Positions 2,602 through 60,674 of a stretch of DNA of 64,000 nt are shown in pieces. A program made the translations under genes and the position numbers. This stretch comes from Candidatus Staskawiczbacteria bacterium (GTDB lineage Bacteria; Patescibacteriota; Minisyncoccia; Minisyncoccales; Staskawiczbacteraceae). Below the pieces are notes generated by a model. That model was not told the origin of the DNA. It saw only the letters and a program-made list of their open reading frames with translations, and made no database searches. Within the stretch, counting starts at the first letter, position 1. Every line of letters begins with the position of its first letter. The DNA lies in the NCBI GenBank assembly GCA_023245155.1, contig JAHFKV010000001.1, positions 11,034 through 75,033 on the forward strand, read 5' to 3'.

Positions 2602-3741
2602 TTAAATTTCCCCTTTTCTAATCTTTTCACGGATTTTGACAACGTATTCATTAAAGTAATGTAAATTATGGAACGTAATGAGTCGCAGGGCCGTAATTTC
2701 GCCTGCCCGCAGTAAATGACAAATGTAATCTTTTTTGTAGTTCAAGCACACCTGACATACGCAATTCTTGTCTAGCGGTTCGCGCTTTTTTAAAAACTTC
2801 TGCTGGCGCAAATTAAGACGGCCTTCAGAAGTAAAAGCAATTCCCCGCCTGGCATAATGGGTGGGCACCGTGCAGTCAAAGGTATCAACACCGGACTTAA
2901 TCAAATCTTCGATATTTTTTAAGTAGCCAACTCCCAACATGTGGCGTGGCTTCTTTTCGTCTAGCAAGGGAATAATCCACTGCAACACCCGGTTGGTTCC
3001 GCCCTTGTCGCGCCACAAATCTCCGCCAATACCAAAACCATCAAACCCCAACGAATTAATATATTTGGCGCTTGCCTCACGTAAATCCTTAAATTCTGAA
3101 CCTTGGATAATCCCAAAAAGGGCTTGCTTAGTTTTTCTTGCCTTCAGGCATATCTTCGCCCAGCGGTGCGTGCGCTCTAATGATTTTTTTACGTATTCAT
3201 AATCTGCTAACGGAGGAGTACATTCATCAAACGTAAACATAATATCAGCCCCGATGTTCTCTTGGATAGCGATTGATTCCTTTGGACCGATAAACAGTTG
3301 ATCACCATTAATGGGCGACTTAAAATACACCCCGTCCTGAGTAATTTTTACTGATTTTGGCTGTTTTGATTGCGTAATAACTTTTTTATCTTTCATGCCC
3401 TTGCCCAAAAACTTGGTCAAGCCAAAGTCACGCCCGAAACCCAAAGAAAAAACTTGGAACCCGCTGGAATCGGTCATGAGCGGTTTTTTCCAATTCATAA
3501 ATTTATGAATTCCACCAGCTTTATCAATGATTTTTTCTCCAGGGCGCAAATGTAACCAAAAAGTGTTGGAAATAAGCATTTGTGAATTAGTCTGCTCAAC
3601 CTCTTCGCTGGTCAATGTTTTTATAACCGCTTGCGTTGCCACAGGAATCAAGCACGGAGTCTGGACCACTCCGTGTTCTGTTTCCATAAACCCTAGCCGG
3701 GCATTGCTGATGTTCGATTTTTTGAGTATTTTAAAGTTCAT
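2602..3741 (-). CDS. tgt: queuine tRNA-ribosyltransferase (tRNA-guanine transglycosylase)
   Basis: 379 aa; TPCLIPVAT, MTDSSGFQV, CxCxxC zinc site (CVCQVC) typical of Tgt. Confidence 0.9.
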   Translation of the reverse strand: MNFKILKKSNISNARLGFMETEHGVVQTPCLIPVATQAVIKTLTSEEVEQTNSQMLISNTFWLHLRPGEKIIDKAGGIHKFMNWKKPLMTDSSGFQVFSLGFGRDFGLTKFLGKGMKDKKVITQSKQPKSVKITQDGVYFKSPINGDQLFIGPKESIAIQENIGADIMFTFDECTPPLADYEYVKKSLERTHRWAKICLKARKTKQALFGIIQGSEFKDLREASAKYINSLGFDGFGIGGDLWRDKGGTNRVLQWIIPLLDEKKPRHMLGVGYLKNIEDLIKSGVDTFDCTVPTHYARRGIAFTSEGRLNLRQQKFLKKREPLDKNCVCQVCLNYKKDYICHLLRAGEITALRLITFHNLHYFNEYVVKIREKIRKGEI

Positions 3742-4217: not shown

Positions 4218-4306
4218 GAGCTATACAGAACGTACAATAAATACAGACAATGGTCTATAAACGGCCTGATGTCAAAGGTCGTTTTATTAAATAAAGAGAA
4301 AAAAGA

Positions 4307-4483
4307 ATGTTCAATAACAATCAAGGAGGAGGAAATTTTACCCCTCGCCCAAAAGTGCAGGGCAATTGGAAATGTTCAGATTGCGGAAAAGAAATTACAG
4401 AACTTCCATTTGAACCGGCTCCAGATAGGCCCATTTATTGCTTAGACTGCTGGAAGAAAAACCGGCCTCCAAAGAAATACTAA
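4307..4483 (+). CDS. small zinc-ribbon protein, CxxC-x18-CxxC (resembles the CxxC-x17-CxxC family)
   Basis: 58 aa ORF not in the track: MFNNNQGGGNFTPRPKVQGNWKCSDCGKEITELPFEPAPDRPIYCLDCWKKNRPPKKY; A-rich upstream region; terminator follows. Confidence 0.7.
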   Translation: MFNNNQGGGNFTPRPKVQGNWKCSDCGKEITELPFEPAPDRPIYCLDCWKKNRPPKKY

Positions 4484-16481: not shown

Positions 16482-17093
16482 CTAATTTCCAAGATTGTTT
16501 TTTAAATTCCTAATTGTTGCTCCCGCCGAAATGGAAAATACCGTATTCACGTTTTCTTTCACCCTGGTTAATACCATTAAGTTCATTTTAACGAATTTTA
16601 CGGAATTAATATTGACGGGCTGGACCAAGGCACTTCCCGAACCCGCATAGCTTCCATCATAGTAGGTAAATATCGGCGTAACCCCGTTGGAAATATCGCG
16701 CTGGACAATAATGTTTGATTCTTGGGCTAGATTATAATTAGGCGGGTTTCCGCTGGGCACGGTTACGCCCTTATACAACGTGGTTCCCACCAAATAATAG
16801 CGCACCCGATTGACCGTAGCCCCGCCCAAGGACGACTTTGAGAAAAAAATAATCTGGTTGGTGGAAGCGGTGTTTAATGGTGCCGAGCCCTCAACCCCGG
16901 TGGTAGCGTTACGTATTTCATTGGTAAATTGGTTGGTTACCAGCCTAGCCTGGTCAACATTGCTTAACGCTGAAAATTGCTGGTTAGAACCCGTAAAAAT
17001 GTTAACAAACAAAAGTGCCGCCATAACGGAGAGGACGCTGAAAATACTGACTGCAACCAATAACTCTAGAATGGTGAAACCTTTTTCTTGCAT
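16482..17093 (-). CDS. prepilin-type N-terminal cleavage/methylation domain protein (pseudopilin)
   Basis: MQEKG|FTILELLVAVSIF class III signal. Confidence 0.85.
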   Translation of the reverse strand: MQEKGFTILELLVAVSIFSVLSVMAALLFVNIFTGSNQQFSALSNVDQARLVTNQFTNEIRNATTGVEGSAPLNTASTNQIIFFSKSSLGGATVNRVRYYLVGTTLYKGVTVPSGNPPNYNLAQESNIIVQRDISNGVTPIFTYYDGSYAGSGSALVQPVNINSVKFVKMNLMVLTRVKENVNTVFSISAGATIRNLKNNLGN

Positions 17094-17094
17094 G

Positions 17095-18870
17095 TTATGG
17101 ACTTAATGCGACATTTAATACGTTATAGCCATTAACCGTGAGGCCGCTGATAGTTTGGGTCTGGTAGCCGGTTGCAGAAATCGTGGCACTATAATTTGAT
17201 CCTTGCGACAGTCCCGCAAACATGGCCTGGCCGGGTGCCGGACATCCTGAAACATAATTCACATTGACACTGGTAAGAGCTGGGGTTTTAGAACTGTCAG
17301 TCGTTGATAAAAAAGCTTTATAGCGCACATAGCGCTTCCCATTAAGGGCTGCGGAAATGGATGTGCCCGTAATCGTGTAATAAGAATTTTGGGTTCCGTC
17401 CGGGCCGAAATAATTCCAACTGGTGTTATCATTATTGGCTGCCAATTGGAATTTCACTACGGTCCCCGCGCTTTGCGAAGCCGGCTGCCACTCTAAACTA
17501 GTGTAAGCGGTCGTCGATGTGCCCGTATCAAATGAAGAAGATTCCAACTGCCCCGAATTGGCGTATTCCCCCCCGAATTGCGCCAAGCGCAAAGCCAAGG
17601 GAATGGTATTAGCGTCAACATTTCCATCATCGACAAAATATTTCTTGGTATTGGTAAAATTAACCTGGCCAGAACCCAAAGACCAATCCTGTTGGCTCCA
17701 AACACTGCCTTCAGTTAGTTTGGTACCGCTATAGGAAGGACTGGCGCTTTGTAAAGTAACGCTGGCTCCCTCAATGGGATTCTGAGTAGCGGCATCTTTG
17801 ACAATCGTTAACAGGCTATTAGCGGTTTTAGCACCCAAGATAACATTAAAATTCTGAGTGGTATTAGGCAGCACATTGATTTGCTGAATGGGCGAAGTGC
17901 CGTAAATCATGTAGGAATTGCTAATCAGAGCGGGTGTATAAGTATCCCATTCAACGTTTTGCAGGGCCACCTGGCCACTGCCGTCTGAAGTGTAGGTATT
18001 ATCAAATTTCAACACGCTGGGTAGGCCAATCAGTTTTGCGCCCTGGACTTCCATAGTAACCCCGCCAATGCCCGCGCAAATGTTATCTTGAGTGACAAAG
18101 GTGAGGTTGCTGGTTTTATCAATGGAAAAACTGATTTGGGTGACCTGGCCATTGGAAATAGTACTGTCGGGTTTTACCGGATTCGGATTCTGCTGGGTGA
18201 CAGGATAGGTTTGATCGCTGGAATACCCGTTTTTGGTAACGGTAATGTGGTAACTGTTAGCGCTATTGGGTAAACCCACCTCCACCCAATTGCCATTGAT
18301 ATCAGAAAGCCGGTTTAAATCAAGGGAAGGGTTGATGCTTAGGTTCTGAATGCGAATTGAAGCCCCTGAAACCGGCTGACCCACCGCGTCAAACACTTTT
18401 ATCATGAATGCCCCACCCGAAGCCAAACCCTCCAAACCCTTTGGCACGATGCTTGTAAAAAAAGAGTTGACTGCCTGGGTGCGAGTGTTTTTAATGGAAA
18501 GCTTAACTTGTTTATAGTCGTCGGGAGCAGCATCGGTGCCTTGTAAAATAGTACCATCGGCAGTGTCATCAATGTAAGTTACTTCGTAATATATATTATA
18601 AGTAACACCGCTGACACTAACTACAATCGGGTTATCGCCGTCAGCCAAGCTGCCATGAGGGTTGCCGCTCAGCGTTCCAATTTGAGAATAGGGTAAATTC
18701 CTGGCCACTTCCATGTACTGGTCGGCCAATGAAGTAATCGTGGTTTGTTCTCGGTAAGCGATAATCTGGCTGACAATCAAAAAATAAATCTGGGCGGCGA
18801 TAACAGCCATAGTTAAAAAAATCCCCACGCTCACCACAATTTCAACAATGGTAAAACCTTTTTGCTCCAT
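17095..18870 (-). CDS. giant pseudopilin (591 aa) with prepilin signal and beta-sandwich repeats
   Basis: MEQKG|FTIVEIVVSVGIF class III signal; repeated carboxypeptidase-regulatory-like segments (GQPVSGASIRIQN, NPIEGASVTLQS). Confidence 0.8.
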   Translation of the reverse strand: MEQKGFTIVEIVVSVGIFLTMAVIAAQIYFLIVSQIIAYREQTTITSLADQYMEVARNLPYSQIGTLSGNPHGSLADGDNPIVVSVSGVTYNIYYEVTYIDDTADGTILQGTDAAPDDYKQVKLSIKNTRTQAVNSFFTSIVPKGLEGLASGGAFMIKVFDAVGQPVSGASIRIQNLSINPSLDLNRLSDINGNWVEVGLPNSANSYHITVTKNGYSSDQTYPVTQQNPNPVKPDSTISNGQVTQISFSIDKTSNLTFVTQDNICAGIGGVTMEVQGAKLIGLPSVLKFDNTYTSDGSGQVALQNVEWDTYTPALISNSYMIYGTSPIQQINVLPNTTQNFNVILGAKTANSLLTIVKDAATQNPIEGASVTLQSASPSYSGTKLTEGSVWSQQDWSLGSGQVNFTNTKKYFVDDGNVDANTIPLALRLAQFGGEYANSGQLESSSFDTGTSTTAYTSLEWQPASQSAGTVVKFQLAANNDNTSWNYFGPDGTQNSYYTITGTSISAALNGKRYVRYKAFLSTTDSSKTPALTSVNVNYVSGCPAPGQAMFAGLSQGSNYSATISATGYQTQTISGLTVNGYNVLNVALSP

Positions 18871-28355: not shown

Positions 28356-28389
28356 AAAAGCCGCCCCGATGTACATCGGGGCGGCTTTT
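28356..28389 (-). terminator. rho-independent terminator
   Basis: AAAAGCCGCCCCGAT-GTAC-ATCGGGGCGGCTTTT perfect hairpin after the stop at 28404. Confidence 0.75.
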
Positions 28390-31080: not shown

Positions 31081-31572
31081 ATGAACCTGCAAGGTCTCAA
31101 TTTCAATTTCGCAGAAAATATCGCCAAGACCATCCAAAACCTGCTCAAGCTCAGGCAATTCCCTCAGGACAGAAGGGGTGTGATATTTGGGAGTGCTCAT
31201 GCGCTACTCCCTGACACGCTCCTCGTTCAGCTCCTAGTTGGGGATTTACCAGCGGAAAGGGCGATACGATTTACCGGCTTCATGAAAGAAAAACTGAATC
31301 GCTCTTCCCAGCACAAAGACCATACAAGCGGCTACCAGAGTGCAGATTTCTCCGACGATCCAACCCGCGACCACAAGATGTACCCTGGTGCAATCACGAC
31401 GCCATCAGGGATCATCTTGTCCTGTTCGGGGGCGCCCTGGCAATGCGACGAACTGATTAATGCGATTGCAGGAGTCAATGCCAAGCTTATGGATGAAGCC
31501 CACGCATACGAAGTCGCAAAGATCAGCAAGAACGAGTGGTTCGACCTGTATCTCAACAAATTCGGCTGGTAG
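31081..31572 (+). CDS. orphan protein in GC-rich island 2
   Basis: 163 aa ORF with promoter, AAGGA SD and terminator; alternative start at 31282 (MKEKLN) if the antisense 31003..31200 ORF is real. Confidence 0.5.
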   Translation: MNLQGLNFNFAENIAKTIQNLLKLRQFPQDRRGVIFGSAHALLPDTLLVQLLVGDLPAERAIRFTGFMKEKLNRSSQHKDHTSGYQSADFSDDPTRDHKMYPGAITTPSGIILSCSGAPWQCDELINAIAGVNAKLMDEAHAYEVAKISKNEWFDLYLNKFGW

Positions 31573-31626: not shown

Positions 31627-31641
31627 CAATACTTCACTTGC

Positions 31642-31791
31642 GTTTTAAGATTTAGTTTCCAAAGTGGCTCTCGCAGGCGAAAAAGCATGGTTTTTCGTGC
31701 AAAGACACGAAAATTTTTCGCTGAGAGTGCAGGGCGAAAAATCTCGCTGGAGATTTTTACGCCTGGCACTTTGGGGGCTAAATCTTAAAAC
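31642..31791 (+). repeat. three-way-junction structured repeat, copy A (candidate ncRNA)
   Basis: shares the conserved core with 47463-47641 and 60172-60296; 25-bp continuous closing helix; compensatory differences. Confidence 0.85.
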
Positions 31792-31823
31792 ACACCAACC
31801 AAAAGGCGCTCTCCAGCATCTTC

Positions 31824-37364: not shown

Positions 37365-37399
37365 AAAAGCGCCCCGATGTACATCGGGGCGCTTTTTTT
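37365..37399. terminator. bidirectional terminator between pyk and obg
   Basis: AAAAGCGCCCCGAT-GTAC-ATCGGGGCGCTTTTTTT. Confidence 0.85.
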
Positions 37400-47207: not shown

Positions 47208-47384
47208 ATGTTCAGACAAATCCTTTCTGTGATTTCGGCAGTGGCAGCCGTGATCCTACTGATCTGGACCCTGGGAAACACAGAGCCAGACAGCCTTGCA
47301 AGGTGTCTCAGCGTAGGAGGCGAGGTTGTACTGATAGGCGGTTATGCCGTCCTTGCGGGAAAGCATGCTCGGTTCTTAAGTTAA
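47208..47384 (+). CDS. 58-aa hydrophobic peptide in GC-rich island 3
   Basis: not in the track; GAGGAG SD 5 nt upstream; MFRQILSVISAVAAVILLIWTL...VVLIGGYAVLAGKHARFLS; terminator follows. Confidence 0.55.
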   Translation: MFRQILSVISAVAAVILLIWTLGNTEPDSLARCLSVGGEVVLIGGYAVLAGKHARFLS

Positions 47385-47462: not shown

Positions 47463-47641
47463 TTTGCGAATCGGTGTGAGTTCTGAAAGTAACTCTCGGA
47501 GGCGATTTGGCACGGTCGGTGTGGTGTAATAATTCGACAGAATTAGTATACCACACCGCAAATCGCCGAGAGCGTAGGGCAAAAAATCTCGCTGGAGATT
47601 TTTATGCCCGGTACTTTCACGGGCTCACATCGGTTCGCAAA
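47463..47641 (+). repeat. three-way-junction structured repeat, copy B (candidate ncRNA)
   Basis: same core as copies A and C; 18-bp outer helix with two G-T pairs. Confidence 0.85.
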
Positions 47642-55276: not shown

Positions 55277-55294
55277 GAATTTGGAGCGAAGGCA

Positions 55295-55348
55295 TTCTTC
55301 CAAAAGAGCTCCTCGGAGGCGAGCCGCTTTGTCGGCTCGCTGAGAGAG
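55295..55348 (+). repeat. partial (5' half) copy of the three-way-junction repeat
   Basis: TTCCAAAAG-AGCTCCTCG-GAG-GCGAGCCG-CTTTGT-CGGCTCGC-TGAGAG; no P3 and no 3' P1 arm. Confidence 0.55.
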
Positions 55349-55417
55349 AAGCAAATTTTTCTATATCGTTGTGGAAAAATTATGCTGTATCTTTTGGGGG
55401 AATGCCCAAGCAAAATG

Positions 55418-58442: not shown

Positions 58443-58478
58443 CTAATAGCGCCCCGCCAGCTGGCGGGGCGCTATTAG
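58443..58478 (-). terminator. groEL terminator
   Basis: CTAATAGCGCCCCGCC-AGC-TGGCGGGGCGCTATTAG 16-bp hairpin. Confidence 0.8.
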
Positions 58479-58500: not shown

Positions 58501-60138
<1,638 letters not shown>

Positions 60139-60171
60139 TTAAGATTTATGATTTAGGATTTATGAAGCGAC

Positions 60172-60296
60172 GCGTCAGTTTCCAAAGTAGCTCTCGGAGG
60201 CGATTTTGCAGGTCCCGCGAAGCGGGAAAATCGCCGAGAGGCGCAGGGCAAAAATCTCGCTGGAGATTTTATGCCCGGTACTTTGGGGGCTGATGC
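60172..60296 (+). repeat. three-way-junction structured repeat, copy C (candidate ncRNA), in the groES-groEL spacer
   Basis: core identical in architecture to copies A and B; 189-nt spacer. Confidence 0.85.
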
Positions 60297-60318
60297 AGAG
60301 CGAAATACCCGCACGCAA

Positions 60319-60609
60319 CTATTCAATAATCGCCAAGATATCGCTTTCAGAAGCAATCAAATACTCTTTCCCATCCACTTTAATTTCACTTGGGCCATAT
60401 TTCATAAACAGCACTTTTTGACCAGGCATCACAGACACCGGAACAATTTTTCCATCATCGGTTTTTTTACCATTACCGACAGCAATAATGATACCTTGTT
60501 CGGATTTTTCTTTATCAACCGTATCAGGCAAAAAAATCCCCGTCTCCGTTTTTTCGCTGGCTTTAATGGGTTCTATTAATATGTGATCTGAAAGTGGTTT
60601 TATATTCAT
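60319..60609 (-). CDS. groS: co-chaperonin GroES
   Basis: MNIKPLSDHILIEP start, 96 aa. Confidence 0.98.
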   Translation of the reverse strand: MNIKPLSDHILIEPIKASEKTETGIFLPDTVDKEKSEQGIIIAVGNGKKTDDGKIVPVSVMPGQKVLFMKYGPSEIKVDGKEYLIASESDILAIIE

Positions 60610-60619
60610 GGTTTTGTTT

Positions 60620-60646
60620 TTAGCAAACTTATTATTTGATTGCTAA
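60620..60646. promoter_or_regulatory. CIRCE-like inverted repeat (HrcA operator candidate)
   Basis: TTAGCAAAC-N9-GATTGCTAA vs consensus TTAGCACTC-N9-GAGTGCTAA, directly after the -10. Confidence 0.6.
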
Positions 60647-60674
60647 TATTAGAAAAAATATATTTTATTGTCAA
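60646..60674 (-). promoter_or_regulatory. sigma70 promoter of groESL
   Basis: minus strand TTGACA-17 nt-TAATAT. Confidence 0.7.

Follow-up and report, generated by a model that had tools for sequence, protein, structure and literature searches.

REP sequences are ~20-40 nt long, carry a conserved GTAG-type head and often alternate in orientation. The ERIC (IRU), BOX and Correia (NEMIS) repeats are ~100-150-nt structured sequences that have conserved terminal inverted repeats and occur in both orientations; they lie between co-transcribed genes and fold in the mRNA, where their effect on processing or stability depends on orientation. Here we describe a dispersed structured element that resembles both groups and is present in a 64,000-nt stretch of a Candidatus Staskawiczbacteria bacterium genome (contig JAHFKV010000001.1, positions 11,034 to 75,033; hereafter the window), where one copy, copy C, lies between the chaperonin genes groES and groEL. 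The likeness extends to the REP/BIME and REPIN-RAYT systems of gamma-proteobacteria, which are abundant, short structured intergenic repeats, found at operon junctions and gene 3' ends among other sites, with the REP itself a simple imperfect palindrome (PMC2817692). Such repeats vary between relatives and are thought to move via a folded single strand. In contrast to a REP, the element is a three-way junction of 120-190 nt with invariant loops, arms of free sequence and a single orientation; no RAYT gene was seen in the 64 kb of the window and ~9 kb next to it, out of a contig of ~660 kb, and the neighbours tested lack a Y1_Tnp domain. As with the ERIC, BOX and Correia repeats, the element is found in intergenic regions that are transcribed as part of operons (13 of 16 copies). 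Unlike them, the element has one orientation (16/16) and an outer helix of unconserved sequence, its selected strand is the one that is not in the mRNA, and its host is a bacterium of the Candidate Phyla Radiation (CPR).

Because CPR (Patescibacteria) genomes are tiny and tightly packed, a conserved non-coding structure of ~150 nt within groESL, ribosomal-protein, rpoC and glycolytic operons needs explaining. In the window, groES (60319-60609, minus strand; 96 aa, Pfam Cpn10) and groEL (58501-60129, minus strand; 542 aa, Pfam Cpn60_TCP1 on an identical protein) are separated by a spacer of 189 nt (60130-60318), as the initial annotation of the locus had stated. The same 189-nt spacer recurs in independent assemblies of this organism (L001), and the nearest named homologues of its GroEL come from Candidatus Staskawiczbacteria. 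Copy C occupies 125 to 138 of the 189 nt, consistent with the earlier description of a structured repeat that fills most of the gap. The positions then assigned to the repeat, 60172-60296, are the exact outer ends of its helix P1; when the terminal AGCGA motifs are included (60166-60170 and 60299-60303), the element extends from 60166 to 60303 on the + strand, with a covariance-model match at 60170-60298 (126.8 bits, E 4e-31).

On the + strand copy C folds into a Y-shaped three-way junction. P1 joins a 5' arm (60172-60189) to a 3' arm (60279-60296) through 18 bp, three of which are U.G wobbles (UUU/GGG); the opposite strand has A.C mismatches in their place. The P2 arm (60190-60244, + strand) has at its base P2a, CUCUC/GAGAG with a conserved GGA bulge, followed by P2b (60199-60206 with 60228-60235), an asymmetric loop that reads GCAGGU here and GCAUGGU in the family consensus, and a variable tip hairpin, P2c (60213-60227). 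P3 (60246-60276, + strand) is the hairpin GGGCAAAAAUCUC-GCUG-GAGAUUUUAUGCCC; copies A, B and C do not differ over its inner 21 nt. The segment from GGCGA to UCGC measures 27 nt in copy C, 37 nt in copy A and 57 nt in copy B; such length changes of the variable arm, by 10, 20 and 30 nt from one copy to another, preserve no reading frame, and a coding role for the small open reading frames (ORFs) inside the element was rejected. The fold energy of the spacer is -78.3 kcal/mol for the + strand (z -5.48; 0/200 shuffles equally stable) and -61.3 kcal/mol for the reverse complement, the mRNA sense (z -4.44), in agreement with the earlier expectation that the groESL mRNA retains most of the helices and loses the G-U pairs.

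A covariance model was built from the three + strand copies that had been found as repeats (A, B and C) and searched over the window. The initial annotation had counted three copies; the model recovered a fourth, and all four are on the + strand. Copy A (31639-31794; 148.4 bits) has 28-nt outer arms and lies between convergent genes, 10 nt past the intrinsic terminator of the + strand gene 31081-31572. Copy B (47463-47641; 142 bits) comes after a small + strand ORF (47208-47384) and a terminator-like hairpin, and it ends 2 nt from the stop codon of a minus-strand ABC permease gene. The newly found copy D (55289-55408; 42.6 bits, E 1e-8) is degenerate, with no GCAUGGU loop and a different P3 loop, and it is located between the minus-strand M48 peptidase and bacA genes. 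With the filters of the model off, the window yielded only simple terminator hairpins beyond these four. The source genome could be read for ~73 kb, that is, the window and ~8.7 kb on one side, and these ~8.7 kb contained no further copy. Scanning an exact 20-mer from P3 over the Joint Genome Institute metagenomes gave 22 loci, 14 of which held genuine elements, and in two of the 14 the covariance model detected a second copy. After curation, our alignment (A4) comprised 17 distinct copies. We conclude that the family occurs in Parcubacteria-type groundwater genomes, those of Candidatus Staskawiczbacteria and similar organisms.

The 17-copy alignment provided covariation that is among the clearest obtainable from 17 sequences. 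Standard pairs filled 93.9% of the pair cells, compared to 41-51% when the partners were slid and 66% after shuffling, and 40 of 44 pairs changed on both sides. Across copies, this was seen for all 19 model pairs of P1; all six P2b pairs covary, and so do the outer pairs of P3, where copy b of locus L140 has CCGC/GCGG in place of UCUC/GAGA and keeps the GCUG loop. RNAalifold independently gave the same three-way junction, E-values of the covariance model went down to 1e-37, and exact-pattern matches ranked above every shuffle. Conservation outside the helices is seen at the GGA/GCA bulge, in the GCAUGGU loop of 7 nt, at YGYAG in the junction between P2 and P3, in the GCUG loop of P3, and at GG in the junction between P3 and P1. 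The P1 extension and the P2 tip have neither sequence nor length in common, even when two copies come from one genome. We conclude that the fold of the element is under selection, with covarying helices and fixed junction and loop nucleotides.

The flanks of most copies share a further conserved motif at the termini, 5'-(A)GCGA(G)...(C)GAGCG(A)-3', which constitutes a direct repeat, AGCGA at copy C and a perfect 6-mer at two other loci (AGCGAC in L127, GAGCGA in L134). The (A)GCGA motif could represent tandem G.A closing pairs, or else a recombination core or target duplication. The flanking repeat, present at many copies, may stem from target-site duplication, but its motif is the same everywhere, and closing G.A pairs would account for it equally well.

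Rfam (release 15, 4227 models) gave no match at gathering score in the window and no credible match at E up to 10 for copies A and C. Six other loci gave none at E up to 1. The best of all these matches was BTnc231, with 15.8 bits where the threshold is 80.4 (E 0.5). A blastn search of copy C against phage and plasmid collections returned no match, and we found no description of the element in the literature on CPR structured RNAs or repeats. Thus, this dispersed family of structured elements is absent from Rfam and is previously uncatalogued. Two wider scans added no members. An 18-mer run over viral contigs hit two homologous chance matches whose surroundings are unlike the element, and the pattern GGGCN{4,8}TCTCGCTGGAGAN{4,8}GCCNGG, run over a genome collection, was too loose: the matches listed came overwhelmingly from unrelated taxa, largely of high G+C content, and none of those listed contained the 16-nt element core. 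Motifs recalling 5S rRNA (GAGAGUAGGG, GAUGGUA), the TPP (thiamine pyrophosphate) riboswitch (CUGAGA), the T-box, the 'GGU' of RNase P, the hammerhead (CUGAUG, flanking copy C) and Chi sites had no Rfam support and a different arrangement, and these likenesses were dropped.

The two strands of the element are not equivalent. In 17/17 copies the modelled strand folds better than its complement, by 2 to 23 kcal/mol (mean 9.6). G.U pairs outnumber A.C pairs on this strand by 46 to 22, a count that leans towards the modelled strand because the alignment was fitted to the model; the C-to-T bias expected of coding strands would presumably push this asymmetry the opposite way. The modelled strand is also G-rich in 17/17 copies (GC skew +0.08 to +0.18), within a surrounding strand that is C-rich in 12/13 loci (-0.08 to -0.21), and the conserved unpaired motifs GGA, GCAUGGU and GG are purine-rich on it and pyrimidine-rich on the complement. 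We conclude that the selected single strand is the G-rich, G.U-tolerant one, which in the window is the + strand.

This strand has a fixed relation to the neighbouring genes. In all 16 copies with a callable neighbour (14 independent loci) the element converges on the gene at its 3' side and lies 0-30 nt from the stop codon of that gene; in L130, L135, L138 and L142 the stop codon falls inside the outer helix. Thirteen of the 16 copies are located between two co-oriented genes and are therefore antisense to an operon junction, in gaps too short for separate promoters. The junctions include rplN|rplX, rpsQ|rplP, rpoC, trxB|eno, glyA|folD, rmuC-like|rplU, groES|groEL and M48|bacA, and locus L132 has two copies (2925-3065 and 4275-4419), both antisense, within one ribosomal-protein operon (at rplN|rplX and rpsQ|rplP). 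On the 5' side, copies A, B and L134 depart from this arrangement in that each follows a co-oriented gene. In these three, a terminator-like hairpin stands between gene and element, so any host transcript that crosses the element carries its reverse complement. The host operons are unrelated housekeeping ones (ribosomal proteins, rpoC, eno, glyA-folD, groESL), and no recurrent partner gene was seen next to the copies. We conclude that the selected strand always opposes the gene whose stop codon the element abuts. For copy C it had been noted that any + strand transcript would be antisense to the operon junction; this is correct, and copy C is no special case, since antisense placement holds as a rule throughout the family.

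Five relatives offered a comparison of the groES-groEL junction, which the initial annotation had proposed. Their spacers measure 134 nt (L123; GroEL 91% identical) and 79 nt (L147; 90%), both AT-rich, 8 nt (L148; 83%) and 5 nt (L149; 83%), and 177 nt in L124, which has four separate hairpins unrelated to the element. None of these spacers contains the element, and the covariance model found no match in 87.6 kb from the five relatives. The statement that 189 nt is long for this tight operon is thus borne out against the spacers of 5 and 8 nt; the closest relatives, however, have 79 and 134 nt with no element. Taken together, the comparison indicates that copy C is a gain at groESL and that its presence is lineage-specific. 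In L124 the GroEL homologue (P0006, 10001-12367) is called as 788 aa, ~245 aa above the usual length.

Other sites give a similar picture. The M48 and bacA genes are 141 nt apart around copy D in the window and share 4 nt of sequence in L123 and L148, where they overlap; copy D has decayed, which we read as a further sign of turnover. Some copies are nearly identical although their loci are unrelated (L142 adjoins ppsA, L143 adjoins rplU), and there are lineage-specific subtypes, with L132a, L132b and L134 divergent and L130, L135, L136 and L138 forming another set. Judged from these comparisons, copies come and go between close relatives, copies C and D occupying junctions where relatives have a tight spacing or no element. 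On the other hand, two compensatory double substitutions in P1 distinguish the orthologous trxB-eno copies of L130 and L138, indicating that at least some copies are maintained in place. A possible duplication of the bacA 5' end flanking copy D was rejected as weak (local alignment score 21 against 14.5 +/- 3.2 in shuffles, 24/500 of which were as good), and the 'ATGCAA' at copy D simply belongs to the M48 gene, whose native end is also seen in L148. At 16872-18223, L123, the closest relative, carries a CD-NTase and Cap15-like pair, a defence module of the CBASS type (cyclic oligonucleotide-based antiphage signalling system); the genome of the window has other genes in the syntenic region.

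Between copy C and groEL lies a tandem repeat (60128-60165, minus strand) that in mRNA sense reads NUAAAUC x5 and runs straight into the groEL ATG. It had been taken for a 14-nt tandem; Tandem Repeats Finder gave a period of 7 and 5.6 copies. The 3' 37 nt of the mRNA-sense spacer fold, which contain this leader, are unpaired. Element-free relatives have other tandems at the same site, CTAAACC x4 in L147 (165-206) and AATTAGNNT x3-4 in L123 (9945-10000), from which it follows that the 7-nt repeat is the native groEL leader and lies outside the element. The flank had also been reported to match the outer-helix arm of copy A. The 10-mer TTAAGATTTA does occur at both 31645 and 60139, as a single short AT-rich match. 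We noticed in addition that a tandem-repeat leader before groEL is conserved in three close relatives (the window genome, L147 and L123), each with a different unit, and that groES and groEL here seem to have no Shine-Dalgarno sequences.

We propose, at a probability of roughly one half, that the element belongs to a non-autonomous family of variable copy number, mobile or selfish, whose sense strand is active or recognised, as RNA or as single-stranded DNA (ssDNA), and is kept out of host mRNAs, and that the groESL copy is probably a tolerated passenger. Within operons, only insertions that place the reverse complement into the host mRNA would survive. At groESL, transcription would start at a CIRCE-controlled promoter upstream of groES (CIRCE, controlling inverted repeat of chaperone expression) and run straight through copy C, so that the mRNA would carry the weaker, mismatch-interrupted fold, beginning ~15-22 nt after the groES stop codon. 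Translation of groEL would proceed from the unstructured AU-rich leader of 7-nt repeats, left intact by the insertion, and the GroES:GroEL balance, if affected at all, would be changed by this intercistronic structure of the mRNA and not by a dedicated antisense promoter.

Several observations weigh against this proposal. No transposase, reverse transcriptase or recombinase was seen next to any copy, and none of the neighbours tested has a mobile-element domain or Y1_Tnp, so mobility rests on presence/absence and dispersal. The sequence of the outer helix is wholly different between copies, unlike the inverted repeats that transposases recognise; the helix pairs everywhere, but its sequence is unrelated among copies A-D and the metagenome copies, and the element thus has no sequence-conserved terminal inverted repeats of the kind that define miniature inverted-repeat transposable elements. 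The compensatory changes at the orthologous trxB-eno site suggest a host function more than a pure passenger. Because gene-strand bias is extreme and GC skew uniform, orientation relative to transcription is inseparable from orientation relative to replication. Finally, the conservation of P3 is overstated, since all metagenome copies were recruited by an exact P3 20-mer.

It is conceivable, if unlikely, that each copy is instead a small RNA gene on the + strand, antisense to the operon, encoding either a trans-acting ribonucleoprotein or catalytic RNA or a cis-antisense regulator. The selected strand is the antisense one (17/17 by energy; G-rich, with purine-rich loops), deeply covarying peripheral helices around an invariant core are typical of functional RNAs, and maintenance of orthologous copies with compensatory changes fits such a gene too. 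In addition, tandem G.A pairs are possible at the terminal 5'-GCGA...GAGC-3', and CUC-UCG-GA / GA-GAG resembles a kink-turn, both common protein-binding motifs. A kink-turn has a 3-nt bulge and then tandem sheared G.A pairs; the full pattern, CUC-UCG-GA-GG / CC-GA-GAG, fits most copies, but it fails in A, L142 and L143, where the bulge is GCA for GGA and CA thus replaces GA, and the same bases can also form a plain helix with a GGA bulge.

Signals for expression of such a gene were not apparent. At groESL the promoter would come from the AT-rich -10-like hexamers in the leader repeat, as the initial annotation had suggested; this now seems unlikely, because the repeat is the native leader, is matched by tandems in element-free relatives, and a sigma-70 scan found no + strand promoter before any of copies A, B, C and D. 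Reading the flanks of the 17 copies by eye revealed no promoter-like box at a fixed distance upstream, and several copies lie 8-13 nt from a neighbouring start codon, which leaves no promoter room outside coding sequence. Neither did we find a T-tract terminator after copies A, B, C or D; copy C has none on either strand and is therefore no intrinsic terminator, which would be a G+C-rich hairpin followed by a T-tract. Among the 17 copies, a T-run follows the element in L135 and L138 only. The fixed-distance promoter and defined 3' end of a sigma-70 small RNA gene were thus lacking in the scans and flank readings, and RNA genes that all run head-on to transcription and replication would be unusual.

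Quite unlikely, in our estimate, is that the element is a folded ssDNA substrate for recombination or transposition, like REP/REPIN-RAYT, the ends of IS200/IS605 or integron attC sites, with its orientation set by replication. DNA hairpins also tolerate G.T wobbles, so the strand asymmetry is no proof of RNA; the orientation is uniform over 30 kb of the window and tracks GC skew in 12/13 loci; copies are present or absent between relatives; and the short direct repeat (A)GCGA that flanks most copies, with its perfect 6-mers in L127 and L134, could be a crossover core. The element resembles attC in that structure is conserved over helix sequence, some unpaired bases are conserved, one arm tip varies in length, the fold is strand-specific and there is an orientation bias. 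However, by GC skew the better-folding strand is the leading-strand template, which is not the strand exposed as ssDNA. The known IS200/IS605 strand rule is the opposite of the placement seen here. By eye, we recognised no attC-type R'' (RYYYAAC) or R' (GTTRRRY) box at the P1 ends of copy C, and, unlike attC sites, the copies are solitary, 8-16 kb apart and inside housekeeping operons, with no cassette arrays and no integrase nearby. The neighbours tested include no Y1/HUH transposase or integrase, and none recurs beside other copies; moreover, known ssDNA transposon ends are simpler than this three-way junction, in which P3 is invariant. We also considered copies A and B as integron-type cassettes of an ORF plus element, and rejected this since both + strand ORFs appear to have their own promoters and terminators. 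The msr-msd region of retrons is another Y-shaped structure with a terminal closing stem, one conserved and one variable arm, and an AGCG-type motif nearby. The element differs from it in that its neighbours are housekeeping genes, with no reverse transcriptase among them, in that the arm order is reversed on the selected strand, and in having many dispersed copies.

The possibility that the functional form is the reverse complement in the operon mRNA, serving to stabilise the upstream cistron or as an RNase III or other processing site that uncouples groES from groEL, strikes us as improbable; an RNase III site and such uncoupling had been suggested in the initial annotation. REP, ERIC and Correia repeats do act as intercistronic mRNA structures, and in the mRNA sense the element starts 0-30 nt after the stop codon at every site, the spacer still folds strongly, and the groEL leader stays unpaired. 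Nevertheless, the mRNA-sense fold is the weaker one in 17/17 copies, A.C mismatches break its long stem, and its conserved loops are pyrimidine-rich. The coding-strand C-to-T bias should favour G.U pairs in the mRNA sense, and the opposite is seen. In addition, the host operons are functionally unrelated.

An equally improbable and more speculative idea is that the element is a new class of functional RNA, with a catalytic or ribonucleoprotein core, that spreads via RNA, by retro-insertion or by RNA-primed insertion into the nascent lagging strand. If true, this would explain both the lagging-strand polarity of the sense strand and its absence from host mRNAs, and the element would be the counterpart, in ultra-small CPR bacteria, of a short interspersed nuclear element. 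Chance similarity or an assembly artefact, for which the only argument would be the short AT-rich 10-mer common to the flanks of copies A and C, is already refuted by the recurrence of the spacer in independent assemblies, the E-values, the pattern matches above shuffles and covariation far above controls.

Whichever mechanism applies, be it a sense RNA activity counter-selected in mRNAs, ssDNA mobility or antisense RNA genes, it would be new for the genome dynamics or RNA biology of a major lineage that is still uncultured. The groESL junction itself amounts to a natural experiment, with 5, 8, 79, 134 and 189 nt between the chaperonin genes of close relatives.

Upstream of groES (60619-60674, minus strand), the sigma-70 scan identified a promoter for the groESL operon, TTGACA-17-TAATAT. 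It is followed directly by a CIRCE-like inverted repeat, TTAGCAATC-N9-GTTTGCTAA, read from the sequence; the CIRCE consensus, TTAGCACTC-N9-GAGTGCTAA, served as yardstick. The position of this repeat suggests that the operon may be under HrcA-type heat-shock control in this CPR bacterium. Just downstream of groEL is a perfect 36-nt palindrome, CTAATAGCGCCCCGCCAGCTGGCGGGGCGCTATTAG (58443-58478), which is likely a bidirectional terminator. Across the window (1-64000), ~50 of 53 ORFs of at least 150 aa are on the minus strand, and the GC skew of the + strand is negative throughout (-0.01 to -0.17).

The small + strand ORF that copy B directly follows (47208-47384) would encode a 58-aa product whose N-terminus is hydrophobic and which matches no Pfam family. 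The ORF has a strong ribosome-binding site, GAGGAG, in contrast to groES and groEL here, and is oriented against the ABC permease and ATPase genes between which it is wedged. Lastly, the hairpins AAAGCCGCCCCGATGTACATCGGGGCGGCTTTT at 28357-28389 and 37365-37397 are 88% identical and 9 kb apart, and they represent a second small family of terminator-like repeats.

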